A stretch of DNA of 63,253 nt, counting the filler, from Psammoneis japonica (Eukaryota), in assembly GCA_008632985.1 (NCBI GenBank). It is 10 parts of 10 records of this genome, joined end to end, with 100 filler letters (N's around TTAATTAATTAA, not from the genome) between each part and the next. Parts side by side here need not be neighbours in the genome. Positions count along the whole stretch, not along the records: positions 34,240 to 40,804 come from QPGO01000557.1; 9 more parts are not named here. One strand, given 5' to 3'. The notes under the pieces were generated by a model, which did no database searches, was not told where the DNA came from, and saw only the letters and a list, made by a program, of their open reading frames with translations. This document shows positions 2,953 through 46,348 of this stretch, one piece after another. The position numbers and the translations under genes were made by a program. The number at the start of each line of letters is the position of its first letter. Position 1 is the stretch's first letter.

Positions 2953-4480
2953 CATGTTTGTTTTCCTTGAAACGACATGTTTGTTTTCCTTGAAACCACA
3001 TGTTTGTTTTCCTTGAAAACACATGTTTGTTTTCCTTGAAACGACATGTTTGTTTTCATTGAAAAGACATGTTTGATTTCCTCGAAACGACATGTTTGTT
3101 TTCCTTGAAACCACATGTTTGTTTTCCTTGAAAAGACACATTTGTTTTCTTTGAAACAACATGTTTGTTTTCCTTGAAATGGCATGTTTGTTTTCCTTGA
3201 AACGACATGTTTGTTTTCCTTGAAAACACACATTTGTTTTCCTTGAAACAACATGATTGTTTTCCTTGAAATGGCATGTTTGTTTTCTTTGAAACGACGT
3301 GTTTATTTTCCTTGAAACGACATGTTTGTTTTCATTGAAAAGACATGTTTGATTTCCTTGAAACGACATGTTTGTTTTCCTTGAAATGACATGTTTGTTT
3401 TCCTTGAAAAGACACATTTGTTTTCCTTGAAACAACATGTTTGTTTTCCTTGAAATGGCATGTTTGTTTTCCTTGGCATGTTTGTTTTCTTTGAAATGAC
3501 GTGTTTGTTTTCCTTGAAACAACATGTTTGTTTTCATTGAAAAGACATGTTTGATTTCCTTGAAACGACATGTTTGTTTTCCTTGAAACAACATGTTTGT
3601 TTTCCTTGAAAAGACACATTTGTTTTCCTTGAAACAACATGTTTGTTTTCCTTGAAACGACATGTTTGTTTTCCTTGAAAAGACACATTTGTTTTCCTTG
3701 AAACAACATGTTTGTTTTCTCTGAAATGGCGTGTTTGTTTTCCTTGAAACGACATGTTTGTTTTCCTTGAAACCACATGTTTGTTTTCCTTGAAATGACA
3801 CGTTTGTTTTCCTTGAAACGACATGTTTGTTTTCATTGAAAAGACATGTTTGTTTTCTTTGAAACAAAATGTTTGTTTTCCTTGAAAAGACATGTTTGTT
3901 TTCCTTGAAAAGACATGTTTGTTTTCTTTGAAACCACATGTTTGTTTTCCTTGAAACGACATGTTTGTTTTCATTGAAAAGACATGTTTGATTTCCTTGA
4001 AACAACATGTTTGTTTTCCTTGAAACGACATGTTTGTTTTCCTTGAAAAGACACATTTGTTTTCTTTGAAACAACATGTTTGTTTTCCTTGAAACGACAT
4101 GTTTGTTTTCCTTGAAACAACATGTTTGTTTTCCTTGAAATGGCACGTTTGTTTTCCTTGAAACGACATGTTTGTTTTCCTTGAAAACACACAATTGTTT
4201 TCCTTGAAACAACATGATTGTTTTCCTTGAAATGGCATGTTTGTTTTCTTTGAAACGAGGTGTTTATTTTCCTTGAAACGACATGTTTGTTTTCCTTGAA
4301 AAGACATGTTTGTTTTCCTTGAAACCACATGTTTGTTTTCCTTGAAACCACATGTTTGTTTTCCTTAAAATGACACGTTTGTTTTCCTTGAAACGACATG
4401 TTTGTTTTCATTTGTTTTCCTTGAATTGACATTTTTTTTGAAATGACACGTTTGTCTTTCTTAAAACAACATGAGTTTGC
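2953..4480 (-). repeat. 23-bp tandem satellite array B (ATGTTTGTTTTCCTTGAAACGAC on +)
   Basis: About 1.5 kb of 23-nt units with a 3-5 nt variable segment. It produces spurious repetitive ORFs (MSFQGKQTCRFKENKHVVSRKTN). Confidence 0.97.
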
Positions 4481-6519: not shown

Positions 6520-6933
6520 AACATGTCCTTTCAAGGAAAACAAACATGTTTTCCTTGAAAAGACATGTTTGTTTTCTCTGAAAAGACATGTTTGTTTTCC
6601 TTGAAACGACACGTTTGTTTTCCTTGAAACAACATGTTTGTTTTCCTTGAAATGACACGTTTGTTTTCCTTGAAACGACATGTTTGTTTTCCTTAAACGA
6701 CATGTTTGTTTTCCTTGAAACCACATGTTTGTTTCCTTCGTTTGTTTTCCTTGAAAGACATGTTGTTTTCCTTGAAACGACATGTTTGTTTTTCCTTGAA
6801 ACAACATGTTTGTTTTCCTTGAAACAACATGTTTGTTTTCCTTGAAAAAAGACACATGTTGTTTCCTTGAAACAGACACATGTTTGTTTTCCTTGAAAGA
6901 CATGTTTGGCTTTTTCCTTGAAAAGACATGTTG
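6520..6933 (-). repeat. 23-bp satellite array C with an inversion point at its start
   Basis: Same unit as array B. 6521-6568 reads ACATGTCCTTTCAAGGAAAACAAACATGTTTTCCTTGAAAAGACATGT, a near-palindrome. Confidence 0.93.
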
Positions 6934-8489: not shown

Positions 8490-10773
8490 ACCCCGATGCG
8501 CATCGCGAGTCCAAACAAAAAGACACAACCCTTTCAACATACCAGTTTTTTAACAGCTTCCGCTCTATCGTCAATATCAAATGTGGCCTTTGGATAGTTT
8601 CCTACTCAAAGGCGCCGTTTCGTTTTGTACGGCCGCCGCGCTGCGTTGGGGGGCTCGCGTCGAGCTAGGAGGTGCTTCAAGATCTAGGGCCTACAGGACA
8701 CTATCTCATCGCCACGCAGTCTGCCCCAAAAGTTCAATAGTACCTCGATCGAGTCACTTCATTTTCGTCTAATTCAATGTGCTACCGGTATATCTTCTCT
8801 TAAAGGGAAACTGAGGCGCAACCAATACGTTGGCAGGCGCACGCGTCTCCGTGTCTCATAGCTGATATGTGCTTGAATCTCTTCTCTGTTCCAGGCTCTT
8901 TGTGACAACCACGATGCCGGCATAGTTCAAACCAGACACAAGAGATAGCTTACCCTGCGCATCATCGCGAGTCCAAATAACAATACATAACGGTTTCAAC
9001 AGATAGAACTTCCAACAGTTTCCGCTCTCGTCCACATCGAATTGTGTCCTTCGTTTGTCAACAGGGAGGGAGTTTCCTACGCAAAGTAGCCGTTTCGTTA
9101 TGGACAGCCGCCTGCATTGTCAGGCTCGTCGAGCTGAGAGACGGTTCAAGTACGGGATGCGTTATCTCATCGCCGCACGCGCAGTCTGCCCGCAGAAAGT
9201 TGCGGTCCCACGATTGCGAGTCTGCAATGTGCTAAATCTTCTCTTCAAGGGAAACTGACGAGCCGCAAGCAATACGTTGGAAGGCGCACATTTGTGTCTC
9301 CGTTTCTCATAGCTTATATGCTTGAATCTCTTCTCTGTTTCAGGCGCTCTTTGTGACAATGTTCCATTGCCGTGTAGTTCCAACTAGAGTAGACACCAGA
9401 GATACAGCTTACCATGCGCAATGCGAGTCCAAACAATAAATACATAACGGATTCAACATGTAGGGCTTCCAACAGTTTCAGCTCTCGTCCATAATAAATT
9501 AGGTCAACCGGGGAGAGTTTCCTACTCAAAGGCGACCTTTCGCTATTGTGGACAACCGCATGCATTGCGTGAGGCTCGTCGAGTTCAAATGTGGTTCAAG
9601 TACGGGACGCTATATCACCGCGACGCTCAGTCTGCGCCCAGAAGTTGCAGACCCTCGATCGAGTCACTCCAGCCATTTTCGTCCGGTGCAATGTGCGCTA
9701 AGTCTTCTCTTCAAAGGGAAACTGAGACACAAGCAACACGCGTTGGCAGGCGCACGTTTGCCTCCGTTTCTTCTCAAAAAGCTTATGCTTGAACCTCGTG
9801 TCTGTTCCAAGCTCTTTTTGACGACCGCATTGCCACGTCCGGAGTAGTTCAAACCAGACACAAGAGATAGCTTACCCTGCGCATCGCGAGCCCAAGCAAT
9901 AGTACGTAACGGTTTCAACGTATCGAGCTTCCAACAGTTTCCGCTCTCATCAATATCAATTTGTCCTTCGTTTTCAACCGGGGAGAGTTTCCCACTGCTC
10001 AAATCGGCGCCGCGTTTCGTTCGTTATGTACGGCCGCCTGCGTTGGGAGTAGGCTCGTCGAGCTGAGAGGTGATGCTCCAAGTACGGGACACTATCTCGT
10101 CGCCACGCGGTCTGCCCAGAAAGTTGCAGTCCCTCGATCGAGTGGCTAAATTTTCGTCGGGTGCAATGTACTTGTTCTTCTCTTCAAGGGAAACTGAGCC
10201 ACAACCAACACGTTGGCAGATAACGTTTGTCTCCATTTCTCGTTGCTAGTGCTCTTTTCTATTTCAAGCTCTTTGTGACAACCACATTCTTGCCGTGTAT
10301 AGTTCAAACCAGACACAAGAGGTAGGTTACCCTGCGCATCGCGAGTCCAAACAATAATACATAACGGTTTCAACAAAGAGTTTCCGCAACAGTTTCCGCT
10401 CTCGTCCGTATTAAATTCGTTTGTCAACGGGGGAGAGTTTTCTACACAAAGGCGCCGTTTCGTTATGATGGACACCATCAGCCGCCTGCATTGGGAGGCT
10501 CGTCGAGCTGAGAGGCGGTTCAAGTATGCGGGACGCTATCTGATCGCCGCACGCGCAGCAGTCTGCCCTCAGAAAGTTGCTGTCCCACGATAGAGTTACT
10601 TCATTATTGTCCGGTTTGCAATGTGCTAAATCTTCTCTTCAAGAGAAACTGATGAGCCGCAAGCAATACGTTGGAACGCGCACGGTATGGTCGCTGTTTC
10701 TCATAGCTTCTGCTTGAATCTCTTCTCTATTCTAGGCTCTTTGTGACGACCACACATTGTCGCGTGCAGTTCC
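8490..10773. repeat. Diverged non-coding tandem repeat, unit about 460 bp, five copies
   Basis: A CATCGCGAG-type anchor occurs near 8501, 8963, 9419, 9882 and 10337. GGCTCGTCGAGCT, TCTTCTCTTCAAGGGAAACTGA and GCTCTTTGTGACAAC recur with the same period. Confidence 0.93.
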
Positions 10774-20699: not shown

Positions 20700-20812
20700 N
20701 NNNNNNNNNNNNNNNNNNNNNNNNNNNNNNNNNNNNNNNNNNNTTAATTAATTAANNNNNNNNNNNNNNNNNNNNNNNNNNNNNNNNNNNNNNNNNNNNG
20801 CCACAGCGCACC

Positions 20813-23800
20813 ATGGGTCAACCCAGTGCCAGCAGGTCCGGCCAACAACGACGCCCGACCGAAAGGATGCGCGAGAGCCAACTGCAACAGGCTCAAGGCA
20901 TGGTCTCCCACAATGCCGAGGCAGAGGCACACCATGATGTGATGCACGAAGATGATTACAAACTGCAGGACAACATGGACTCACCTGTCTCTTTTCTGGC
21001 GAGCTCGGACCCCGACACCATGTGCTTTGACCAGGCCATGCGCGAACCTGACAGAGACGAGTTTGTCAAAGCCTGTGTTAAAGAGGTCAATGATCACATT
21101 GAAAGAAAACATTGGACACTCATCCCAAGAGAGGACGCACCTGATGATGTTGGCGTTCTCCCTTCGGCATGGTCTGTAAAGCGCAAAAGAGATGTCAAGA
21201 CTCAAGCCGTCTGCAAATGGAAGTCCCGACTCAATGTGCGCGGCGGGAAGCAAGAGTGTGCTGTCAACTGCTTCCAGACCTGCTCTGCTGTGGTCTTTTG
21301 GTTCACTGTCTGGCTCCTGCTGATCACAGCCATTCTCAAGAAGTGGCACACACGCCAAGTCGACTTCGTTCTGGCGCATCCGCGTGCTGATGTCGAATGT
21401 GACATGCATGTGGAGTCACCTGCAGGAGTTGAGACAAAATGTGGCAATGGCAAGACTCATGTTCTGAAGTTGCTCAAGAACTTACATGGACAGAAACAGG
21501 CAGGGAGAGCATGGCAAGAACACTTGCGTGATGGATTGTTAAGGATTGGTTTCGTACAATCAGCGGTTGACGAGTGCCTCTGTTTTCGTGGCAATGTCAT
21601 TTTCACCCATTGTGTCGATGACGGCATCTTTGCATCCCCTGACAAGTCTGCTGTTGACAAGGCGATGCAAGATGTCAGAGATGAGAATTTTGACATTGAT
21701 GATCAAGGCACTCTGGACGACTACCTCGGTGTCAACGTCGAGACGCCACCAGACGGCAGAATGAAACTCACCCAACCTCACCTTGTCAATCAGATTCTGG
21801 AGATGGCCAACATTCCCAAGAGACTGCCAAATGAGTCTGCTCCTGCTCCTTCTTCCAAGATCCTCCACAGGCATATGAGTGAGCCTGCTTTCCAAGGGAG
21901 CTTTCATTACCGATCCATCATCGGCAAGCTCAATTTTCTGGAGAAAAGCACTCGACCGGATGTCGCCTACGCGGTGCACCAAGTCGCACGTTTTTCCTCC
22001 GATCCCAAGGTTTCTCACGGTGAAGCCGTACTATGGCTCTGTAAGTACCTAAGGTCAACCAGAACTGAAGGTATTATACTGCAGCCCTCAACGGATAAGT
22101 CCCTTGAAGTTCACGCCGACGCGGACTTTGTGGGCAATTGGAACAAGCTGACAGCACCCGATGACGTCGGCACTTCCAAATCTCGAACTGGGTTTGTCAT
22201 CACCTACGCAGGGTGTCCGATTGTATGGACGTCCAAGCTACAGACTCAGATCGCGCTCAGCACTACTGAAGCTGAATTTATCGCTCTTTCGGAAAGTCTT
22301 CGAAGCGCCATCCCAATTATGAACCTCATTCAAGAGTTTATGAGTCACGGTCATAATGTCCCTTCCAAGACACCAGTCGTACACTGCAAGGCTTTTGAAG
22401 ACAATTCTGGAGCACTGGAGATCGCGAGATTGCCTAAGATGCGTCCTCGGACAAAACACTTCAACCTCACTCTCCACCACTTTAAAGACCATGTTCGCAA
22501 AGGTCTCATATCAATCCTACCAATTGATACGGCAGATCAGATTGCAGACAGTTTCACCAAACCACAGCGGTTTCCGCGCGAGAACGGTGAGCGTGTTTGT
22601 CTGTGAAAAAAAATGTTCGGGTGTGCCAAATCAAACTGGAATTAGGAACTTCTGAATCTTCAAAGTTTTGAAAAAAGCACACTGTCACCGCACAAAAAAA
22701 ATTTGTTGCTCAGAACCGCAGTCACCATGAATCGACAACAGCCGGTTCTACTTCATGTAAACTGCCGACACTGAGGAAAAAAATGAGATATGTTGTCGTT
22801 CATGGCATTGTTGAGGTCACATGTCGTTTTTTCCTTAGTGTAAGATGTTTTGATGTCGTCGTTATCGACATGGTTGACAATGGCGGACGGAATCTCGGTT
22901 GCGCCTTTTTTCGTTGAAATCATCGTAGATTTCTACGTGTGGTTTGTACTGGATTGTCGGAACAAGTTTTCGTCGACTTGTTGTCATCGATCTGACGGTG
23001 GCCTTGTTGATGGTATTTTGACTTGCCTCTCCCAGCATCTCCCATGTTTCAGCTCTCTGTTGTGTCTAACCATCATGCTGTGCAAAATTGTTTCATCTGT
23101 AGAAGCCCAGAGAGAAAAACACAAGATCATTCTTGCCGCTCCTGACGACGAGATTCATGCCACGATGCCGGGACGAACGAGCTTGACTGCAGGGGTGGAT
23201 GAAAAGCCCAGTGTGGACCACACAATGCAGCGCAGTCTTGGCATGCTTGTCAAGACTTGGTGTGATGGCAGTGGAAGTGTTCTGTCGGGATCATCCGAGC
23301 TCAAATTAGCTCAGGCCGCTGTTCTCTGTTAGTTGATGAGAAATGCACCGTCGGGCTGATGCAGCAGGTCGATGATCCAGGTAAGTTCACTTGACAAGTC
23401 TTGTGCATTTAACATCTTGATGGTGTGGGCGATTCTAACAGGTAGAGGCAATGGAAATTGTTTGCTGGGAAGGTCCATTTTTAAACTGCTCATGAGGTCA
23501 AATCCTGCCAGTCGACGCAGGCCATGAACCAACCGACATGCAGTGGCAGGCAATCATCTCTGGCAGTCTGCTGCGGTTGAATCTTACACACACAATGCCT
23601 GGAGTGACAAGTCATGTGCTCAAACTAGCCATCCAGTGCTCCCAAGCATGTTTCCTCGAGCAAAGAGTGGTCGCTGAGGGCTGAGAGGAGGTCTCAGACA
23701 AGCGTTGCTTTGCAAGCAGGGTCCACCAAAGTGCAGCAGAATCTGCTGAAAGAGAAACAATGCCATGTTCACTTTCATTGTGTCCAGTCCTGCCACGGAT

Positions 23801-34139: not shown

Positions 34140-34561
34140 NNNNNNNNNNNNNNNNNNNNNNNNNNNNNNNNNNNNNNNNNNNNTTAATTAATTAANNNNN
34201 NNNNNNNNNNNNNNNNNNNNNNNNNNNNNNNNNNNNNNNGCTGTGCATTTCGTTGAGCACTCACACGCTCACATTCTTTCAACTTACACATGTGTTGTCT
34301 TTCCTCATTGTTGTTTTGTTCTGTAGGGTCTCCCTTGCCATGGGCCATCCCTGAGAGAGAAATGCTTGCTTTGAATGTCACTTCTACCTTGCAACGGCCA
34401 CGGCAGTCTGACGACAAGTCCAAGTCACAGATGCAGCATCCGGATGACTTCATAATAAATATAGAAGCTTGGGTCTGTGGTGTCTGAAGATGTTCAAGCT
34501 CTTGGCAGCTCAGATTTGTCGTCGAGCAATTTTGACGCGCATTTGACGTGCCTCCAGAAGG

Positions 34562-34799
34562 TGTTGTAATTTATCCTTCTGGTGACTATTTCAGAGCCAC
34601 CTCAGTCCTCTAAGGTCTGATCCTGAGGCTAAAATAGACAAGCTTGTTATCACAATGCTTTCTAAGAGTTAAAAGAGAATAATGACTGCTTTCATCGGCA
34701 GCTTCAGTGCCTCACGTAGAGCACATGAGCGCTGGCGCATGCGTCTTCTTCGCGCCATCTAATTTCGGTGTTTGAACTTTTAATTCACCATTTCCAACA
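34562..34799 (-). repeat. 3' LTR (238 bp)
   Basis: Aligns without gaps to 39959-40196 with 8 mismatched positions. Confidence 0.97.
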
Positions 34800-37700
34800 C
34801 ACTCCTGCTGACCAACGACACGATTCTTGCCATTTCCAAATTTGACCATCTCAGGCACTTGGATGTTCATGATGGCTTGACGATCAGAAATGAACTTTTT
34901 ACCAACCACTGGTTTGGTCATGCAATCTGCCATCATCTTGTCTGTTGGGCAGAACTTAATCTCAAGTTCTCCTCGCTTGATGAGGTCAGTGATGTAAAAA
35001 TGCTTGATGTTGAAATGCCTCGTGCGTTTGCCCGAGCTGGCCTTTCCATTTTGTTCTAGTTTCATGCAACTTTGATTGTCTCGATGCATGATGTTGCGCT
35101 CGACTTCAAAACCTTGAGCTTCAACAAAACGCTTGGTCCAAAGGACCTTTTCCAAAACATCGTCTCCTGCGATGATCTCTGCTTCCGTAGAACTCCTGGT
35201 GTTGATCTTCTGCTTCGTGCTGACTGATGCAATGACACCTTTTCCAAGGGTCATGGTAGAACCTGTGTGACTTTTACAGTCCGGATGGACTGCAAATGCG
35301 GCATCCGTGTGCCACTCGATGACAACTTTGTCTCCAGCCGACATGACTGCGACATCAAGCTGGGTTGTCTTGAGGAAATTCATGAGCCTCACCAGCTTTG
35401 GCCAATCTGATTCGCTCAGATCCTTGACCCTGGTAGAGAGAGAAGCAATGCCAGGCTGAATGTCCTGTCTGGCTCTCTTGCACACAAACATGCCCTTCAT
35501 CACAAAAGTGCAAAATGCTTGAGCATGCTTGAGATCTAATTTCTTGGCTGTCTCATCCACCTTGTTGAGCTTCTCGCTCCACGGGCAATCCACGTCACCC
35601 GACAATTCTTCTGGGAATTTCTTGAAGAATTCCTTGACCATTTCTTGCACATGAAGCACCATGTCAACTTGCAATGCTCCTGGAATGGAGCAATCTAGAG
35701 TTATGGCTAGACAGTCATGCCTCTTTCCACGCGTGACTTTGACCTTTCCGATCTCATCCGCACAAGTTTTGTCCAACCAAATCTTGAATTCATCGTTGAC
35801 CTTGCTGTCAACATGGCTAGACTTCAAATCGTCCACATGCCATGTCACCGTGTGTTGTTTTCCATTCACGATGTGGTTGGCGACACATGGATCATGAGGA
35901 CCAATCTCAAATCCGATTCCTTCGATGTCTCTGCGGAACTTCTTGCAACAAAGAATGGAAGACACCAGCATTCCGTAGAGTGCCTTCAACATTTCAACGT
36001 AGAGAACCTTGTGTTTGCCTTCGTGCACGACGCAGTCCTGGCAAGTGTCTGGATCCAATTCCAGCAACATGTCCACCATCCTTCCACTGATCTTCATGAT
36101 GATCTTTTCATCCTTGACCTCGATGTCCGTTTGCACAAATGCATTTGGAATGTCTGCCATCATAACGTCTCTGCCTTGCTTGGCATCAATCACTCCTGCA
36201 ATGAGAACAGATTCTGTTGATGCTGTCGGACTGGCGGTTTCATCTCGGTCCATGCACTCTCGTTGCGTGCTTCCGTTTGCACACAACCTTGACTTGATTC
36301 GTCCATCTCTCTTCTCTGTGAGAAACATGAGGCTCTCCATGGCTCTCTTCCTCTCCAGTGGAGTCATGTCCTTGATGCAAATGGGTTTGAAAACCACTCT
36401 ATCATGGATTTGCTTCAGCTCTGACACTGCCGACTTGTGGCCTTCTTCTCCAAACTTCTGGAGTCCTCGTGCCAAGCTGCAAGTCTGAATAAATTGGTGT
36501 GCTTCTTCATCAGTGGAAATCGTGCTAACCTTTTTGTTCCACTGGCACATTGTCATGGCCATGATTCTGGCCGTCTCTAAGCTGCATGCTTCTTCTTGTG
36601 AATGGGCTTGAGTCTGCAGATGGCATTGGCAGTCTCCCAATCTAACTGGAGGTTTGAGAGTCCTTCCTGCCCTGGATGTAGCAACAGGCTCTTCTTGGAC
36701 ACTTTCTTTGGTTTCACTCTGCTCCTCTCCAGATTCGTCATCAGATTCCAGGTCTTTCATTTCGTCGATGATCTCTTGCACTTCCAGAGAGTGTTCCTTC
36801 TCTTGTTCCAGCCTCTGTTGTTCATCAATGTGGTCAATCATGTCATCGATTTCTTGTGAGATTCCGCTGCCGTCTGATGGTTGAGAACCAACTTCGTCAT
36901 TGTCTCCGAGATGCTCATCATTGGAGGTTTCTTCTTGAGTCTCGTCTTGTTGTTCACTGATGTAGCTGGCTTCTTCATCCAATTCTTGTTCCCGAACTAT
37001 GTCTTGCAGCTCTTCTTGACTAACTCTGTCGCAGTCTCCCCAGCCTAGCTCTTCTTCCTCATCATCTTCAGTTTCAATGTCTTCTTCTAGATCACAATCT
37101 TTGTCTTCAAATTGATCTTCATCACAATCCACTCCTGCAAGCCAAGCACCGTCGCACAAAACAGTTCCAGTGCGGTTCTGAATCTTGAGACCATTGGGCA
37201 TCTTGTTCATTTCAGCCAAATGATGAACCTGCTTTATGATGGCGGGAGTGATGGGCACAGGGGTGACCTTGCGACGAGTGATCTTCTTGCCGGTTTGCAA
37301 GTGCAGCAACTCATGTCCAATCTGGTTGCTGTCGGTGGGGCGCAAACAAATGCAATCCAAGGTCCGTGACTCTTGAGTGTTCTTGGGGTCCGGGTCGTTG
37401 TGAGCTTGCACACAAGTGCCGAACGTGATCTTGCAGCTCTTGTCATAGTCTAGATTCTTTTGATGGAGAATCATTCTTGGACTGCAATGTTTGGAAACGC
37501 CGTGCTTGGCTGGAAAACAATTGAGCTTCTTAGCAGCTTCGGTGACCATGACTTCAACCATGAGTTTTGGTAGATGCTTGAATGGCAGCTGATGATGGAC
37601 TGCCCTGGCACGTTCTTGAATGACTCGGTTGTTTCTTTCGGCTTCTGGGACATGCTCCTGAGCATTTGTGCAGTTCACCTTGAGATCAAACTTGTCTTCT

Positions 37701-39856
37701 AGTGCATTCCCAATGGGCCTGAATTCGTTGTCGCAATGAATGCGTGTGACCTTCAAATCGGCCTTGTTGTAGACTCGCAGCACATCTTCCAGAGCTTCTT
37801 GATGAGTTGGTTGGGTCAAGTCCTTGAGCGGTTGTGCCGTGTGATAAAAAATGTTTCGTGACACTGTGGTGAGGAATGGCAATCCATTCACCTTGAGGCC
37901 ATCCAGGCAAAGAGTGACCTTGTGCTGTGCTGCAATGAGCTCCTTCGGGATCTCTGTGCAGTCTTCTACAACTGGGTCTGGCTTCTGCCTTGTTGCCTTG
38001 CCTTTTCGACTTCCAATGTCTGGTCCAAAAATCTTCTCGGCCAAATCTACGTCCTCCATTGTGATGGGATTGTTCTTGATGCTGTTCATGCGAATGATGG
38101 CCTTCAGATCGTTCACGGTTGGGTTTCCCAACGCTTGCAATGGTTCCCCAGCCCTCTTGGCTTTCTTGAACTGTCGTGGAGTGTAGAACTTCTTGTTCTC
38201 TTCCACACTCTGCACAAATTGGAGCTGAGCTCCAGTGTCATTAATCTTGGGCTTGTAAACGTGCAGCCCTTTTCCGTCCTCCTCGAACCCAACCTTCTTG
38301 TTGGGGAGATGAACGGTGAATGCGTTGTCTTGCTTAGAATCACTTGTGATTCTGTGCTTCTTCTTCATGTCAGAGCAAGCAAAAATGTTGGTGATTGCAT
38401 CTGGGTTAAACCAAGTCTCACCAAACCCTGGCACTGTGGCCTTGTGTGTCGTGACCAGGACTCCGCCATTGGTGTGCAAACGCATGGCTTCATCCGACGG
38501 ACGGATGTCTGCAACGAGCTTCTCATTGCAGAAGATTGTGGTTGTGGACTGGTTGTCCAATAAAATCCAGTCTCTCATGCTGCCAGATTGATCCTGGTAG
38601 AGAGATGCATCGATGTGCGTGCCAGCCCATCCTGAAACAGCAGATTTTGTTCCAGTGGATTCTTTGGCAGAAGAGTTGGCTGCACTGGCATCGTCACTTG
38701 CTTGAGCGTTGCTTGCTTCTTGCTTGGCTTTGGCCTTGTTGATGGCCCATTCTGCTTGAGGTTTTCCTTTCCTTTCCCAGCAATTTTTGGAATTGTGTCC
38801 AGCCTTGCCACAGCAGCAACACTTGCCTTCTAACTGAGCGAAGGACAGCGCAATTTCTTGGTTTTCTTCTTGTTTCTTGGAGTCAGAGTTGTTGTTTCGA
38901 TTGTTCCTGTTACGGTGGTTGTCAGGCTGACCAACGTAGTCAAAAGTGTGGTTGCTCAACACCGTGTTGGCTTCCGTAACAGACTTGGGATGTTGGTCGT
39001 TCTTGAGGGACTGCTGAGTGTTCAATCCTGTTAGAATTGATCCGCACTTGCACTGATCTGCATTCTCCAAGTGCATGTAACCCATCAATTGGCTGAATGC
39101 CTTTTCTTGACACTTCTTGATGGCATCCGCATTGTGCTCGTCACATTCTGACATGCCTTGCACTGCCTTGGTGAGGACAATTGGTCCTCCAATGTGAGAC
39201 TTCATGATGTCCCTTGCAACCCTGAATCTCTTGGTGCAATCTTGGAGACTCTCCTTCTCCTTCTGCTTGGTTTCTAGCACTGCTCTCATTGAATCTGAGA
39301 TGATGGCCATGTCATGCCTGTGCTCTTGGCAGTTCAATGCATGCTCCTTAATGGCCTTGAGCAACTCGACAGGATCGTTTTCAATTTTGGCTTGGAAGTC
39401 GGTTCTTGCTTGAATCTTGTTCTTCATGGCCTTGGAGCATCTCTCCCAGAGCAAAGCACAAGCCTTGACAAGGTTGTTCTCATGAGTTTGGGTCCTCTTA
39501 ATGTGAGCATCAAATTCTGTCTTGAACTCAATTTCATGCTGTTTGTTCAATGGCACGTCCACCTTGTCATCTCCAGTCAAGCTGACCTGCAAAGTCGGCT
39601 TCTTAGAACTCATGTCACATGGAGTGAAAGTGTTGAGTGCAGTTGCAATGTCATTTCCAAACTCATGAGTCTTCTTGATGTAGTTGATGATGAACTCAGC
39701 AGCAATCTGAAAATCAGATGCTTGCTTGGCACTTCCAACATGATGGACATGATCATTGATGCCCTTGTTGCTTTGCTTGCCACTCTTGTTGCCCCTTCCT
39801 GAGGGTCCTCTTCCTTGGCTTCTATTGCCATTTCTGCCTTTGCCTCTTCCACTCAT
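34712..39856 (-). CDS. Copia gag-pol polyprotein, open but heavily Tyr-to-Cys/His substituted
   Basis: Zn knuckle CCCCGKAGHNSKNC, protease WILLDNQST, integrase IHCDNEF and HVPEAERNNR, RT ADIPNAFVQ and TWHVDD, RNase H WHTDAAFAVH and SSTEAE. The first ATG is at 39856. Confidence 0.93.
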   Translation of the reverse strand: MSGRGKGRNGNRSQGRGPSGRGNKSGKQSNKGINDHVHHVGSAKQASDFQIAAEFIINYIKKTHEFGNDIATALNTFTPCDMSSKKPTLQVSLTGDDKVDVPLNKQHEIEFKTEFDAHIKRTQTHENNLVKACALLWERCSKAMKNKIQARTDFQAKIENDPVELLKAIKEHALNCQEHRHDMAIISDSMRAVLETKQKEKESLQDCTKRFRVARDIMKSHIGGPIVLTKAVQGMSECDEHNADAIKKCQEKAFSQLMGYMHLENADQCKCGSILTGLNTQQSLKNDQHPKSVTEANTVLSNHTFDYVGQPDNHRNRNNRNNNSDSKKQEENQEIALSFAQLEGKCCCCGKAGHNSKNCWERKGKPQAEWAINKAKAKQEASNAQASDDASAANSSAKESTGTKSAVSGWAGTHIDASLYQDQSGSMRDWILLDNQSTTTIFCNEKLVADIRPSDEAMRLHTNGGVLVTTHKATVPGFGETWFNPDAITNIFACSDMKKKHRITSDSKQDNAFTVHLPNKKVGFEEDGKGLHVYKPKINDTGAQLQFVQSVEENKKFYTPRQFKKAKRAGEPLQALGNPTVNDLKAIIRMNSIKNNPITMEDVDLAEKIFGPDIGSRKGKATRQKPDPVVEDCTEIPKELIAAQHKVTLCLDGLKVNGLPFLTTVSRNIFYHTAQPLKDLTQPTHQEALEDVLRVYNKADLKVTRIHCDNEFRPIGNALEDKFDLKVNCTNAQEHVPEAERNNRVIQERARAVHHQLPFKHLPKLMVEVMVTEAAKKLNCFPAKHGVSKHCSPRMILHQKNLDYDKSCKITFGTCVQAHNDPDPKNTQESRTLDCICLRPTDSNQIGHELLHLQTGKKITRRKVTPVPITPAIIKQVHHLAEMNKMPNGLKIQNRTGTVLCDGAWLAGVDCDEDQFEDKDCDLEEDIETEDDEEEELGWGDCDRVSQEELQDIVREQELDEEASYISEQQDETQEETSNDEHLGDNDEVGSQPSDGSGISQEIDDMIDHIDEQQRLEQEKEHSLEVQEIIDEMKDLESDDESGEEQSETKESVQEEPVATSRAGRTLKPPVRLGDCQCHLQTQAHSQEEACSLETARIMAMTMCQWNKKVSTISTDEEAHQFIQTCSLARGLQKFGEEGHKSAVSELKQIHDRVVFKPICIKDMTPLERKRAMESLMFLTEKRDGRIKSRLCANGSTQRECMDRDETASPTASTESVLIAGVIDAKQGRDVMMADIPNAFVQTDIEVKDEKIIMKISGRMVDMLLELDPDTCQDCVVHEGKHKVLYVEMLKALYGMLVSSILCCKKFRRDIEGIGFEIGPHDPCVANHIVNGKQHTVTWHVDDLKSSHVDSKVNDEFKIWLDKTCADEIGKVKVTRGKRHDCLAITLDCSIPGALQVDMVLHVQEMVKEFFKKFPEELSGDVDCPWSEKLNKVDETAKKLDLKHAQAFCTFVMKGMFVCKRARQDIQPGIASLSTRVKDLSESDWPKLVRLMNFLKTTQLDVAVMSAGDKVVIEWHTDAAFAVHPDCKSHTGSTMTLGKGVIASVSTKQKINTRSSTEAEIIAGDDVLEKVLWTKRFVEAQGFEVERNIMHRDNQSCMKLEQNGKASSGKRTRHFNIKHFYITDLIKRGELEIKFCPTDKMMADCMTKPVVGKKFISDRQAIMNIQVPEMVKFGNGKNRVVGQQECVGNGELKVQTPKLDGAKKTHAPALMCST

Positions 39857-39958
39857 GACAAAAAGGCAAAGCAGCAAAACATCTCACACACCGTGTGGAT
39901 GACTCTTTTCTTTCTCACTTTCTTTTCACAGCTCTCAGCTGGATTGTTCTCTTTCAAC

Positions 39959-40196
39959 TGTTGTAATTTATCCTTCTGGCAACCATTTCAGAGCCACCTC
40001 AGTCCTCTAAGGTCTGATCCTGAGGCTAAAATAGACAAGCTTGTCATCACAATGCTTTCTAAGAGTCAAAAGAGAATGATGACTGCTTTCATCGGCAGTT
40101 TCAGTGCCTCACGTAGAGCACATGAGCACTGGCGCATGCGTCTTCTTCGCGCCATCTAATTTCGGTGTTTGAACTTTTAATTCACCATTTCCAACA
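39959..40196 (-). repeat. 5' LTR (238 bp)
   Basis: Partner of 34562-34799. Confidence 0.97.
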
Positions 40197-41423
40197 GAAG
40201 GTGATGCGTGGTTTTATTCGACAGAGAAACGAGCCATGGCAATTGTGATGGCTTACATTGAGTCTTGCAGATGCAAGGCAGTTTATAACACAGAAACATG
40301 TGACTCATTTGCCTCATCTGCTAAGCCTGTGCAACACATTTAGATGTTAAAGTCGGGGCAAATTATGCACAATGCCAAGTCTCCAAAAACAGCACAAGAG
40401 TGCAAGCCCAAAAGAAGAATTGGCTTTGCAACTTGTCATGGGAGTGTAGAGCTTGTTTTTCTGGGGCATCATGTCTCTGTTGTTTTCATGGAGTGGACAT
40501 TCGCTGGTGTTGTTGCCGCCAACGTGCGAGTTCGCCTTGACAACATGTTGCACTGTATTCTGAGAGTTTGGAATGAAAAAACAACTTGCACTTGCATTGT
40601 TCTGTCACAACAGAAATGTGTGAGCTGTCCCTGGCCCTTTTGGAGAAATGGGGCAAGTGAAAGAGGAGCTACAGAAAGACACGGACGACGCCATTTTGAT
40701 GGATTGTCGTCAGGTGGTGTGTCGAGAGGAGTCGTGATGGAGTGCCGCTTTGTGTTTTTGCACTGCGTCCATGTGGGAATGTACGTGCTTGGCTCTCGTG
40801 TAGTNNNNNNNNNNNNNNNNNNNNNNNNNNNNNNNNNNNNNNNNNNNNTTAATTAATTAANNNNNNNNNNNNNNNNNNNNNNNNNNNNNNNNNNNNNNNN
40901 NNNNTTCTTTCGGGGTGTTCTGTCAGACTTTTGAATTGGCACATACACACATTAGAGGCACAAGCAAATTTAATGATATGTTGAAGCCTCAGAGACCCAC
41001 ATAAATTTATGTTCTATGTAGACCGCGTAGATTGTGTACCGGCGGAAAATCCACCGCCTGTCAACTCATCAGCAGTAATTCTACGCAAATTCTACTTACA
41101 CCTCACACACGCACACACGCCTGCACAGTCTAATAACCACGCACTACGTGCGTGAGAATTCTTCATCACTGTGCAGAAGACTCCACTGTCATCCCATGTA
41201 AGCAGAGTAGTCGCAGTACAGGGCTCGCTGATCTAATTGAAATCGCGCAGCGCACACATCAAGTTGCGCGCAGACTTTGGCGGCCACAGAAGGAGGAAAG
41301 GTGGTGCTGGGTGGGCGGGCACACGATTGATGGAAAGGGTGATGGGATGATGTGGGCAAGGAGGGGGGCAGCAGAGCAAGGTGACAGGCTTGTTGCTGTG
41401 GTGTGGCAAATGTTGAGTGTTGG

Positions 41424-44400
41424 TGCAGCATGCAGTATGCGACTGTTATATGCATATTCATAATTATATATTATTTATATATCAATCGTACCACAGTCGT
41501 GGATGCGTACAAAGGACAGAACGATCACACAGAGTTGAAAATTGCAAATACGATCGATTGACGATGTTGACATCTTACGTGTCAATAGCAATCGTATTCG
41601 GACAATCTGTTGTCACGAATATATTCTCCGAAAGGCCTTTTGTCTGCAGAAGCAGTGCAGAAACTTTAGGCCATTGAGAACTCGTTCGGAGAAACCAAAA
41701 ATCACAGAGCAAAATTTAATCTCATAATTTTCACTTTTCATACTTGATTCTACTTTTGTTCATGCTCGTTCTTCGAGCATGGTGCATTGTGTGTACACAC
41801 CACAGAAGGTAAAAACACGGAAAATGAAAATTTTAACTAATGTGCCTTTGTAAATTCTTCCATGAGCAGGTGTGAAATGCTTCAGTTCTGCTGGAATCAA
41901 TTTCTGAGCGGAAGCAGCTCAATCTGAGCAGTACCTCAAGATGGAACCTTATTTTTCGTCTACAAGACAAGAGGATTTGTTCTAATACGATCCATTCCAA
42001 GTGTCCCAGGACCAAGGACTGTACAAGAGCACAGCATTATCGAAGTGTCCACACCAAGTCATGGTTGGATAGAATTTCAAGTCTTGAGTCGATCAGGTCC
42101 GAGAAATACATCTACTGTTCAAGGAGAGACTATTGGAGAGTTTTATGAGACCAAATTGATGAGCCTCGAGTCCAAAGGGCAGGAAGGAACCATTGGAAAG
42201 TACCTCAAGAGTCTCTTATCTCATGTCTTTCCAAGAATTGCACTTCAGAATCAGAACCATTATTTTCAAGATGATCTGAAGAAACCAGAGCTGCTTAGTC
42301 TAACAGCAAGAAAGCCTCTGTTGGACCCAAGAGGTCAATGAAGAGCGTCCACATGACCCTTCAATTGATTCTAAGTTGAATCTAGCGGGAAACCGAGCCG
42401 TGAGCTATCAGCTATCACTCGCACCGCAAGGATGGCAGCATCAGCCTACTGTCCAAAACACTGAACTGTTGGAACTTACCTTTGACGAGCTGATTGAGTT
42501 TTGAGTCGTCTAGAAGTCGTTCATGACGTCTATGACAATGAACCATATCAAATCAGGCTCTGATAGCGGAATTGATTCCAAAACCAAAATGGTTCCAAAT
42601 TTGGTTCCAAAAATGGTCTCCTGTATGGTGCCTGAATAATCCAAAGTGAACAAAAGGTGCAATCTTTGAAAAAAGAACACCTGCATCACGGATTGAAGCT
42701 ATTCTGAAAATGAACTAGTGAAAGAACGCCGTGGACACATTGAGCGTGATCCGAAATGGCGCTGTTCAAATGGCAATCGCACGTGGCATCGCGATGACGA
42801 AAATGCCGCTCGCAAAAAGGAGTTGAACGTCATGAATGATCAGACAGTTCAAAAAAAAAAACTCAAAGCGAGTTCCTCGAACAAAGAAAAAGAGCATAAG
42901 GGCAAAGAATTGGATTCTGATGCCCTCAGTGAAGAAAATTACCAATTTGATCGGATGATCCAGAGTGAATCCGAGGAATAATTTGGGTCTATTCAAGAAT
43001 TATATGCTCTACTGGATATTAGGAAGCCTAGAAAAAAGGCAGAAATAATTCGTGCTAGTCCAGGAGTCATCATTTATATGAACACTTCCTTGGGAAAGGA
43101 GAGAAAAAAGCATCTACGTGTTCCTATCGACAACGGAACATCGTCAACCACAATTTTGCGCAAATTTGTGCGAAAGTTGAGAACACAAGAATCCGCCACC
43201 AAAAACTTGGAAAACCAAGGGTGAGCTCTTTACGACTGACAGTAAATGCCGAATTCAGTTCTCACTGTGCGAATTTAAGACATGCTGATGTTCAAACAGC
43301 ACATGTTGACAACAACAATTCTTCTTCAAGTCCATGTGATGTGATCATGAGACGCGACTTAATGTCCAGTCTTGAAATCACAGTGGACTTGCAAATGAAG
43401 AAATCAAAAAGGAAGAAGCAACTGCATCTATGAAGAATGTTGATCCACTCTTCGAAACCGATGTTTCCAGCGACGTCGTGAATAGAGTTAATGACGGAAC
43501 CAATGGTCCTCGACTCACATTGTCTCACGCTGCTAATCTCAACAATGTGACAGCTGCGGCAACTTATCTGACTCCAGAGGAGCAGAAGCTATTGATCTTC
43601 CCTTTGAAAAGATTTAAATCTCTTTTCGATGGTTCTCTAGGCGAGTGAATCGGAAAACCTCGCAGTGAAAGCTGGCTCGAAACCGCATCACGCGAAAGGT
43701 TTCCTGTTTCCACAAGCCTTGGAGGCAACTCGTAAGGAGATTGAAAGGCTCTGTAAGCTAAAAGTCCTAAAGGAAAATAAACTGTTCTGAATGGACAGCT
43801 CCAACCTTTAAAAAATAGAAAAATGGTCGAAGCTCGGTTTCTGTCCGACTTTCGTGAACTGAATAAGAGGCCAGCACGCATGCCGTATCCTCCACCAAAT
43901 ATTCAGAACACACTTCAGAAACTAGAAGGGTTCATATATATGACCTTACTCAATTTGAATGTGGGACACTGTCACATCAAATTTAAAAAGCACATGTCGT
44001 GCCAACACGAAAATCATGCCGTGGGGAGAAAATAAGTGCTATGGACTTCCTATGAGAAGCTATAGAGCCCCAGATATTTTTAAACAACACATGAGTGAAC
44101 TCATAACAGGTTTGAAGTTGTCAGAACGACTGTATATGATCATTTATGCCTGACAAAAAGTGACTTCAAAATATCACCTGTACAAGTGACAGCTTAATAC
44201 GGCATTCAAACGACTAGAACAGTTGCTTAGAAGGTTAACAACAAAAGTCCTTCACTGTTTAACTTGAAATAAACTATGAAGACTTCCATGCATAACGACA
44301 TGCATTCGATTACAAAGAAAATGGAGGTGATTCAAACAATCGCAACACGAGAAAAACGTAAAGAACACTACGACATCTCATCGTTATATGTCACTGCTAT

Positions 44401-46348
44401 CGAGACATGTAGTCTCAACGATCTCCTGTACAATGCTAGCCAGATTCACCTCAATGAAGGTCAAATGGCAAAAGTACAAGTACGGAATGAAAAGTCTCCG
44501 AAAATATGGAGCGTATCAAATCAAAAACTATGTTGTTGTCATACACGAATTTCAACATTATACGTTACAACGGAAAAAAGAACTTCTGTCCATATTGAAA
44601 ACACTTATAAAATTCCGAAATATGCTGTTTGGCCAACAGATTAATATACACACGGATTATAAGACACAACGGACAAAGTCATACGTTGGTGACTTACAAT
44701 AGAAAACTTCAGTCCCGAAATATAAAATGCATCGAGGGCAAGGCGAATGTCATCGCGATACTGTCGATCGACACGATCAGCCGACTTACTATAAAAAAAA
44801 TTGAATCCTACAACAATGTCCTACCGTTAAAACGGGATAAAGACATTTCCCTCCAAATTGTCGGACGCGACACATCATACGAACACTTTTCGTGGAGGCG
44901 AGCGAGATCTAAAAATGCTCATGTCATAAGGATAAAATCGCCTTATTAAATTACGGTTAGAAAAAAACTCTGTGACAGATTGGTACACGACATTACAGCA
45001 CCCACTTCACACTGGCAAAAGACAATCTCACAAACACCCGTACGGTTGTACTGTACAATGTATGAGGCAAGACATAAATAACTTATCATGTCGACACACG
45101 AGATGTGCCAAAGATTCAGAAAAAAAGAAAAGAAAAATGGACATTTATCCACTAGTGCACGAAAGCAGTGCCTTCGGAATGACAAAATGACACTGGCATG
45201 TCAGAAAGAAACGTCCAAATAACGATTAAAATCCAACTGATAGATGGTTGAAGTACAAAAAATCCATAATGGAATTCATAACCATCACAGGATTGATTGT
45301 CAAGACGAAATGGTCATATCCTTGACCATCGTTAATTACCACTTAAGAAACGTGGTAGTGCAGCAGAGCAATGTAGCACATGATATGAAGTGAGCCCACC
45401 AAACTGCACGAAATCCACAAGCAAGTAAGTGAACGCCAATTAAGAGCGTACACATCGAGTGCTGGGCAAAATGCTATGTACAATCGACACCATGAAAGAA
45501 CAGCAGGACAATTGGTCCTTGTGTTCACATGAATAAAAGAACGTCAGAGAGAATGCTTGACGCAATACCACATATATAGAGAGAGAGCATGAGACAAAAG
45601 ACATGCTGGAACATTATCAGCAGTAGCATTTGCAGTACGTTCTACGTATCATACTACTGCGCAAGCTACACCTGGACAATTAGTCTTCAGAGACATAACA
45701 TTTAACATCCAACATGTCACAGACTGGAAATTCATCCAGCAGCGCAAACAAAAAATCATAAATAAAAATAACGCTTGAGAAAATACTCGATGTACTCCTT
45801 ACATGTACAGAATAGGAGAAAAGACACTGCTCAAGAAAGACTTGCAGAAAATGGAACGGCCCTATGCTGGCCTATATATATAAAACAATGACAGTCATTG
45901 CTAATGGCACAATGCAGTTGACGTGGAGACATTGTTGACACTGTCAATGTCCTTCGAATTATTCCACTTAACGAATAACTCTAATGTGCAATTAGGGAGG
46001 CAAATGCAGCATGCGACTGTTATAGGCATATTCATAATTATGTGTTATTTACATGTCAATCGTACCACCGTCATGGATGCGTACAAAGGACAGAATGATC
46101 ACACAGAGTTGATCGGATGTCGAAAATTGCAAATACGATCGATTGACGATGTTGACATCTTACGTGTCAATAGCAATCGTATTCAGACAATCTGTTGTCA
46201 CGAATATATTCTCCGAAAGGCCTTTTGTCTGTAGAAGCAGTGCAGAAACTTTAGGCCATTGAGAACTCGTTCGGAGAAACCGAAAATCACAGAGCAAAAT
46301 TTAATCTCATAATTTTCACTTTTCATACTTGATTCTACTTTCGTTTAT
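41424..46348 (+). mobile_element. Decayed Ty3/Gypsy LTR retrotransposon
   Basis: Direct repeats of about 330 bp (about 41430-41763 and 46005-46348) with the PPT AGGGAGGCAAA before the second. Fragments occur in PR-RT-RH-IN order: IDNGTS; RFLSDFRELNKR..PYP..LQKLEGF; KELLSILKTL..FRNMLFG..HTDY; AFAVRSTYHTT..ATPGQLVF. Many frameshifts. Confidence 0.9.

Follow-up and report, generated by a model that had tools for sequence, protein, structure and literature searches.

A complete Copia element with a divergent LTR pair

We analysed a window of 63,253 nucleotides from the diatom Psammoneis japonica (assembly GCA_008632985.1, 91.4 Mb in 597 contigs, hereafter G000), in which ten small contigs are chained by N linkers. 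One of these contigs (G000:C558) holds a whole Copia retrotransposon (34562–40196, minus strand) whose two long terminal repeats (LTRs) differ at TA and CG steps, and comparison across its family showed that TA is changed to TG or CA in chromosomal DNA, on both strands and after insertion. The features of the element, with positions counted along the window, are as follows.

34240–40804, no strand: host contig of the element (QPGO01000557.1), both flanks being repeated DNA
34557–34561, plus strand: left copy of the target-site duplication (TSD) GAAGG
34562–34799, minus strand: 3' LTR, 238 bp, with 13 of 16 family TA columns retained
34715–39883, minus strand: single open frame of 1723 codons from stop to stop, extending into the 3' LTR
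34800–34806, minus strand: short purine-rich tract on the inner side of the 3' LTR, common to the family copies and a probable polypurine tract
39959–40196, minus strand: 5' LTR, 238 bp, which lost four TA steps retained by its partner
40197–40201, plus strand: right copy of the TSD GAAGG

Judging from its motifs, we take the frame to encode gag, protease, integrase, reverse transcriptase (RT) and RNase H, in Copia order. The RVT_2 profile matched it with an E-value of 3.9e-7 and 30.3 bits, slightly below the cut-off of 31.6, and its homologues score 44 bits. The LTR pair with TG...CA ends bounded by a 5-bp TSD, the Copia-type RT (RVT_2) and an integrase that precedes the RT identify the element as Ty1/copia; its named homologues are from diatoms (about 57–62% identity over RT–RNase H), and LTRs, TSD and domain order are shared with the diatom CoDi elements as described by Maumus et al. 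(PMC2806351). Two apparent peculiarities were rejected: the His of the HVDD motif in the RT is native to this family and not a mutated residue, and a 117-nt "repeat" recurring every 6 kb in the window is the N linker.

Eight mismatches between the two LTRs

Alignment of 34562–34799 with 39959–40196 gave exactly the eight mismatches listed in an initial annotation of this DNA: four of TA type, three of CpG type and one other. On the plus strand, with "here" meaning the 39959 LTR, they are as follows.

39980–39981, plus strand: double mismatch, CA here and TG in the partner (34583-4/39980-1), two independent CpG losses and not TA
39984–39985, plus strand: TA type, CA here and TA in the partner (34587/39984)
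40045–40046, plus strand: TA type, CA here and TA in the partner (34648/40045)
40067–40068, plus strand: TA type, CA here and TA in the partner (34670/40067)
40077–40078, plus strand: TA type, TG here and TA in the partner (34681/40078), on the strand opposite to the other three
40099: background C/T mismatch (34702/40099)
40127–40128, plus strand: CpG loss, CA here and CG in the partner (34731/40128)

Among 30 LTR copies of the family (out of 40 listed), TA, TG and CA were all present at each of the four TA-type sites, which agrees with their earlier reading as TA versus CA or TG, and at none of them is the family uniformly CA or TG. The double site had CG in 8 copies, TG in 19, CA in 3 and TA in none; the TG/CA double therefore derives from CG, an origin that the initial annotation had allowed for. 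That four of eight mismatches fall on TA steps has a probability of 0.009 (computed with 14 TA steps where the true number is 13, hence slightly conservative). All four TA losses lie in the 5' LTR, three as TG and one as CA on the element's sense strand, and a single LTR indeed carries both types of change. By itself, however, the window pair, with its four TA losses all in one LTR, is weak evidence, because LTR identity at integration, which had been called established, is not absolute and can fail through reverse-transcription errors or gene conversion. The pair alone cannot set the direction of change either, as had been recognised, and protein outgroups were used for this instead.

Direction of change

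We compared the family with 120 homologues, in which 36 columns are conserved as tyrosine (Tyr), and used the other conserved residues as a control. At these columns 6 Tyr remain in the window copy, beside 18 Cys, 11 His and 1 Phe, whereas each of the other conserved residues is kept at 82–100%; the overall Tyr content of this copy is 0.75%, compared with a median of 3.95% (range 2.95–4.89%) among the homologues. Across 22 aligned family segments, the same columns held TA 57 times, TG 274 times, CA 141 times and something else 24 times, and at 25 of the 36 some copies had TG where others had CA. In these segments no gain of TA was found at conserved His, Cys, Gln or Trp (0 of 860 cells). The replacement of conserved Tyr by Cys or His, together with the lack of TA gains, settles the direction as TA to TG or CA.

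Losses after insertion, on both strands

The rate of loss was determined from ten LTR pairs with matched TSDs, all from one Copia family. Since insertion these pairs have lost at least 83 of their 224 TA steps, together with 34 of 168 CpG steps, while other transitions affected 38 of 3,946 bases and transversions numbered 11 (in 1,973 sites). TA loss per base was 19-fold that of other transitions, which is a lower bound since parallel hits are invisible. The CpG losses (CG to TG or CA in repeats, of the type expected from deamination of 5-methylcytosine, 5mC) represent a second process on the same DNA. In nine of the TSD pairs, C/T differences before A (24/227) and A/G differences after T (26/214) were similarly frequent, compared with 2–6 of 213–346 in non-CpG contexts. 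In a copy on contig C21 the 3' LTR has kept TA at 16 of 16 family columns, but of 35 conserved Tyr in the interior just 6 are left; given this combination, the TA steps of this copy were most likely intact when it landed and were then lost in place. Inheritance from partly mutated parents, first suggested by a discordance of 0.17–0.31 within a clade vs 0.39–0.49 against the distant copy L042, was dropped because the earlier site list had admitted possibly CG-derived sites; at known TA sites the values were 0.26–0.28 vs 0.28–0.31, and discordance was independent of neutral distance (rho −0.05).

Both strands were affected. The losses specific to the 5' LTR in the ten TSD pairs comprised 24 TG and 20 CA, and Tyr columns in the self-complementary context RTAY (R, purine; Y, pyrimidine) had split evenly into 62 TG and 62 CA with no TA left. 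YTAY columns, by comparison, showed 193 TG and 67 CA, with 49 TA remaining. Events private to one copy favoured A followed by Y (72) over A followed by R (19) and were balanced in self-complementary contexts (29 vs 25, p = 0.68), so that the target is 5'-TAY on either strand. An apparent sense-strand bias among private interior events (94 TG vs 52 CA) was rejected, as context accounts for it. Same-strand runs were not seen (neighbouring events alike in 69 of 134 cases, 72 expected), in keeping with many rounds that each add only a few hits.

The change is not limited to retrotransposons. Between TA-rich and TA-poor piggyBac relatives, compared at 73–80% identity, TA losses outnumbered the reverse by 41 to 3 (L088 vs L101) and by 49 to 2 (L089 vs L100), and between two piggyBac copies 97.9% alike, 31 of 69 mismatches were TA losses. 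PiggyBac transposons move without an RNA step, and a 23-bp satellite region is also free of TA. Loss in piggyBac and satellite DNA and on both strands implies that RNA or complementary DNA (cDNA) editing is not the cause. The proposal of post-insertion changes on both strands of chromosomal DNA therefore held across the family and in piggyBac, and the wider mismatch table, from ten TSD pairs of one family, was TpA-enriched and strand-symmetric.

Several further sequences were recorded alongside these. The 23-bp satellite occurs in both orientations and almost without TA at 1830–2091, 2953–4409 and 6547–6932 of the window, and stop loss is the probable origin of its long open frames. At 41430–41763 and 46004–46348 an LTR-like pair has 14 mismatches, of which seven are TA losses (five right, two left) and five CpG losses; its interior, which is frameshifted and has a weak Gypsy-type RNase H match, retains far more TA, at an observed-to-expected ratio (O/E) of 0.4–0.7. 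A second Copia RT frame (20801–22603; RVT_2, E 5e-28) shows intermediate TA depletion. Elsewhere in the assembly, the TSD copies of L038 (G000:C28:333063-338564) read GTGTG and GCATG, as they would if a single TA or CG step had mutated in both copies, on one strand in the first and on the other in the second; inside this element there is in addition an inverted LTR piece. Family copies L035, L036, L040 and L033/L034 are nested, inverted or tandem with a common LTR.

TA-poor blocks and the dependence on position

Within the window, TA O/E fell to 0.01–0.05 in some 1.5-kb steps and was 0.5–0.8 in gene-bearing parts. On contig C1, of which 200 kb was sampled, 54 of 200 1-kb windows had a TA O/E below 0.2, grouped into sharp blocks of about 6–20 kb between stretches at 0.45–0.75. 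In these blocks, O/E was 0.05 for TA, 0.26 for CG, 1.74 for CA and 1.78 for TG, with AA, TT and AT near normal (1.23, 1.21 and 0.83, the last vs 0.91). TA and CG depletion share the blocks (rho 0.64 over the 200 windows). In 37 windows CG O/E was below 0.3, and in all of these TA O/E was at most 0.4, whereas ten TA-poor windows still had CG O/E above 0.5, from which we conclude that TA goes before CG. The density of TAA was 1.7 per kb and that of TAG 1.0 per kb in TA-poor blocks, vs 9.0 and 8.9. A Pfam search with 127 frames of TA-poor blocks returned no matches; the mobile elements seen to be hit are Copia and piggyBac. Old Copia matches in the assembly contain about 160 TGA vs 12 TAA/TAG stops (hand count), a pattern that could be mistaken for an altered genetic code.

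The LTRs of single elements can be hit very unequally (9:0, 10:0 and 0:9). In TSD pairs the 5' LTR took 44 losses vs 8 in the 3' LTR, but a built-in 5' bias was rejected since the pattern is reversed in three pairs without matched TSDs, where the 5' LTR is spared, and the flank is a better account. The spared LTR faces the outer flank with higher TA in eight of ten pairs (rho 0.73, p = 0.016), and the TA content of 26 single LTRs likewise follows that of their flank (rho 0.56, p = 0.003). The window pair adds little to this test, because its own flanks are short and hardly differ in TA (0.30 vs 0.33). The mutational load is set by position and not by sequence, and this dependence on the flank points to targeting by chromatin domain. 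It also qualifies the earlier remark that LTRs keep more TA than the interior: for the window element this is correct (O/E 0.68 and 0.48, from 13 and 9 TA, vs 0.17), yet the difference depends on a TA-normal flank and not on LTR status.

Two other groups of repeats were observed. Multi-copy cytosine-methyltransferase fragments that are 90–96% alike (L081–L083 and L087; G000:C301 and C297) have TA O/E of 0.00–0.09 while CG stands at 0.67–0.84, and they are possibly cargo of a mobile element. At 8500–10750 of the window, five diverged units of about 460 bp have normal TA and CG and constitute a repeat that apparently escapes the process.

Proposed mechanism and alternatives

We hypothesize that an inserted element that falls within a silent, CpG-poor chromatin domain would be exposed to a host process that acts on either strand of chromosomal DNA and converts the A of 5'-TA-3', best before C or T, to G. 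Such a process would strike few sites per round over many rounds, and because each target would be destroyed as TG or CA, the domain would become nearly free of TA. Tyr codons would turn into Cys or His and TAA and TAG stops would vanish, so that the frame would stay open but probably crippled. The domains may be methylated heterochromatin, and the process may be defensive. Chemically, deoxyadenosine might be deaminated to inosine by an enzyme of TadA or ADAT2-3 type (or an ADAR-like one) on transiently single-stranded DNA, and the change would then be fixed by replication. We hold with high confidence to the observed part of this scheme, namely the direction, the post-insertion timing, action on both strands at the DNA level, the TAY preference, the regional intensity and the co-location with CpG loss. 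The whole explanation, adenine-deamination chemistry included, we favour by a modest degree.

Repeat-induced point mutation (RIP) of ascomycetes, which depends on RID and DIM-2, changes CA/TG to TA, enriches TA, creates stops, needs homology and hits in runs. A mirror image of it, triggered by repeat pairing and not by chromatin domain, would leave the chemistry open and would account for the fact that every affected sequence identified is a repeat (Copia, piggyBac, satellites and multi-copy methyltransferase fragments); in addition, the diatom DNMT4 is described as related to RID (Hoguin et al., 10.1101/2021.06.11.447926). We nevertheless consider this form of targeting unlikely, as LTRs that were once identical are hit unequally according to their flank, same-strand runs are missing, some repeated windows in gene regions of C1 have normal TA, and the mutated region in Bigelowiella natans is presented as single-copy in the preprint text (10.64898/2026.01.13.699255).

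Error-prone synthesis is a rather improbable source of the change. A Y-family (eta-like) polymerase that copies or patches methylated chromatin with A:T>G:C errors at TA would agree with the five Y-family polymerase loci in the assembly and with the co-location of TA and CpG loss. Polymerase eta prefers WA motifs (W, A or T), but the AA half of this motif is spared (AA/AG 72/2,771 vs GA/GG 45/2,667), as is its complement (TT/CT 45/1,488 vs TC/CC 44/1,622). Neither the normal AA and TT content of TA-free blocks nor the rarity of transversions bears the signature of this enzyme.

Two proposals involve a modified base as a mark of silencing. If the T of TA were oxidised to 5-hydroxymethyluracil (5hmU) or 5-formyluracil and then mispaired with G, the pattern would on paper be identical to that of adenine deamination, and 5hmU is reported to be linked to transposon silencing in dinoflagellates (PMC11572971, PMC11071213). 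A search of the assembly for TET/JBP gave no match, though with a silent control this does not establish their absence. We judge this route improbable. Distinctly improbable, in our view, is prior methylation of the TA adenine to N6-methyladenine (6mA) as a repeat mark, followed by deamination to hypoxanthine in parallel with 5mC loss. The loss of TA and CG in the same blocks and an active methylation system, indicated by 27 cytosine-methyltransferase matches, are in its favour; eukaryotic 6mA is found mostly at ApT, however, and ApT is hardly reduced here.

A-to-I editing of RNA or single-stranded cDNA within the retrotransposition cycle is already largely refuted and very improbable. The three TG among the four TA losses of the window pair and the TG excess of private interior events had spoken for it, but 20 of the 44 5'-LTR-specific losses are CA, the excess is gone when self-complementary contexts are considered, the loss extends to DNA transposons and satellites, and one copy combines a TA-complete LTR with a depleted interior.

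A base-calling artefact at modified bases, or the reverse direction (CA/TG to TA, true RIP), has next to no probability. In its favour, the assembly's library type is not on record, only 46% of sampled words occur in sequencing run X1 and some bases of the window copy are in no X1 contig. Against it, the stretch is matched by 1,624 Logan contigs from X1, of which 375 reach 99% identity or above, with differences that are nearly all transitions; moreover, TA loss grows with the age of a copy and ends at the edge of a block, and TA gain is absent. Run X1 is possibly the source sample and hence non-independent, so that it offers partial support, and outside data gave no site-by-site confirmation of the bases private to the window copy. 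Empty-site contigs in X1 and X2 were rejected as evidence of insertion, being inseparable from other copies of the host repeat. One X1 contig at 37640–37897 has a depth of 423 (usually 40–90) and three differences, and perhaps represents near-identical young copies collapsed in assembly.

Candidate enzymes

The favoured reading, adenine deamination in silent chromatin, draws its enzymatic plausibility from what is known of TadA. TadA8e editors are described as causing A>G/T>C off-targets at TA throughout the genome (PMC13225742), and the substrate of Escherichia coli TadA is given as UACG (PMC12265680); the TAY rule matches enzymes of TadA type. The natural substrate of TadA and ADAT enzymes is, by contrast, tRNA, and a DNA role of the P. 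japonica ADAT2 is putative. The assembly has an ADAT2 gene with the HxE-PCxxC motif and, further on, the Asn to which the B. natans preprint draws attention (10.64898/2026.01.13.699255). Also in favour of this reading, no match to the MPG/AAG glycosylase was found in the assembly, where the control matched in 4 of 14 cases.

Several results weigh against this reading. The deaminase search of the assembly found only ordinary genes and singled out none: a plastid-type TadA, ADAT2, ADAT1, dCMP deaminase, RibD, two guanine-deaminase-like genes and one ADAR-like domain. Of the 270 homologues of the ADAR-like protein, those with a named source come from many diatoms, and since the protein is this widespread while none of 79 related metagenome loci is TA-poor, the fact that it occurs here has no explanatory value. 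Endonuclease V was found as well. Read from the opposite strand, A>G at TA is T>C at TA, and the damaged base is therefore indistinguishable by sequence. The family copies are related to one another, and counts pooled over them are non-independent; the edge effect comes from ten pairs, three of them without matched TSDs, with two exceptions; and the TG/CA splits per column are overdispersed (p < 1e-8).

Three deaminase loci have features of their own. The ADAR-like domain (L109:3672-5388, G000:C79) is separate from ADAT1, with no RNA-binding domain detected. On the same contig, a zinc deaminase domain is fused to a 2-oxoglutarate-Fe(II) (2OG-Fe(II)) dioxygenase in a 490-aa frame (L074:316-1791), which probably serves nucleobase salvage. 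A two-domain dCMP deaminase gene occurs twice with identical scores (L072/L073; G000:C41 and C317), as allelic contigs or a duplication.

Other organisms and relation to known systems

The process is not general. None of the 120 full-length homologues shows TA-type Tyr loss (each keeps 2.95–4.89% Tyr, which sets the window copy apart), and a metagenome scan with P0320, covering few data sets, gave 79 loci with a best identity of 72% and TA O/E of 0.42–0.82, none of them TA-poor. Among 145 RT cluster representatives, however, six (P0249, P0320, P0332, P0247, P0331 and P0299, from Logan, JGI/IMG and ENA records) had His or Cys at 45–82% of mostly-Tyr columns, compared with a median of 0. The best match of P0249 in the assembly was 47% (80 of 495 candidates scored), and viral contigs searched for DNA of these outside Tyr-poor proteins contained none. 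They are a lead to possible other organisms with the same process.

The closest known case is the chlorarachniophyte B. natans, for which the main text of Mettrop et al. (bioRxiv 10.64898/2026.01.13.699255) describes TpA to TpG/CpA changes in two viral regions of the genome, at a rate some 1000-fold above background and in only some of the lines; an ADAT2-type adenine deaminase is proposed there but not shown. Its description and ours share A>G/T>C at TpA in the direction TA to TG/CA, on both strands of chromosomal DNA, in blocks of foreign or mobile DNA, and with long-term TA depletion and gain of CA and TG. The two cases differ in several respects. The B. natans data in that text come from mutation-accumulation lines and concern DNA of nucleocytoplasmic large DNA viruses (NCLDVs) and virophages, with mild depletion (rho 0.45, NCLDV region) and transposons only suggested, from Pfam enrichment. 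In the diatom, Copia and piggyBac are hit, erasure is near-complete (O/E 0.05), and a TAY preference, co-located CpG loss and the edge effect are seen. In sum, the signature and the TA substrate are the same, whereas host, targets, depth of erasure, TAY rule and edge effect differ. The words diatom, CpG, LTR and retrotransposon do not appear in the main text of that preprint, and a 2025 preprint on diatom transposable elements (10.1101/2025.10.24.684338) has none of TpA, dinucleotide, hypermutation or RIP. No further report was found in the literature outside subscription papers, and the supplements of the B. natans preprint may list diatom or transposon cases.

Fungal RIP resembles the present process as a post-insertion, two-strand and dinucleotide-specific transition process that ruins transposons. 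Here, though, the direction is opposite (no TA gain, and TA nearly absent from the blocks), TAA and TAG are removed, position decides, as the one-sided LTR pairs show, and there are no runs. APOBEC3 and ADAR likewise mutate mobile elements by host deamination, acting on cDNA or RNA with a one-strand pattern and both LTRs alike, whereas the changes described here are chromosomal and strand-symmetric.

For P. japonica, LTR dating is badly inflated, with seven of the eight mismatches in the window pair driven by TA or CpG, and dead elements resemble intact genes because their TAA and TAG stops are removed. Our data extend a signature known from one preprint to a second major lineage and, on a large scale (54 of 200 kb of C1), to ordinary transposons, and they provide a fingerprint for the enzyme hunt: 5'-TAY, both strands, silent domains. 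It is possible, though we advance it tentatively, that a natural DNA adenine deaminase recruited to silenced domains acts as a general defence that removes TA from mobile DNA of all kinds in the diatom, the chlorarachniophyte and, as the six outside RTs with His or Cys at Tyr columns suggest, further lineages, with domain borders setting its reach. Such an enzyme would matter to those working on genome defence and on base editing, and if this idea is true, LTR pairs would map the borders of silenced domains to within a few hundred bases.
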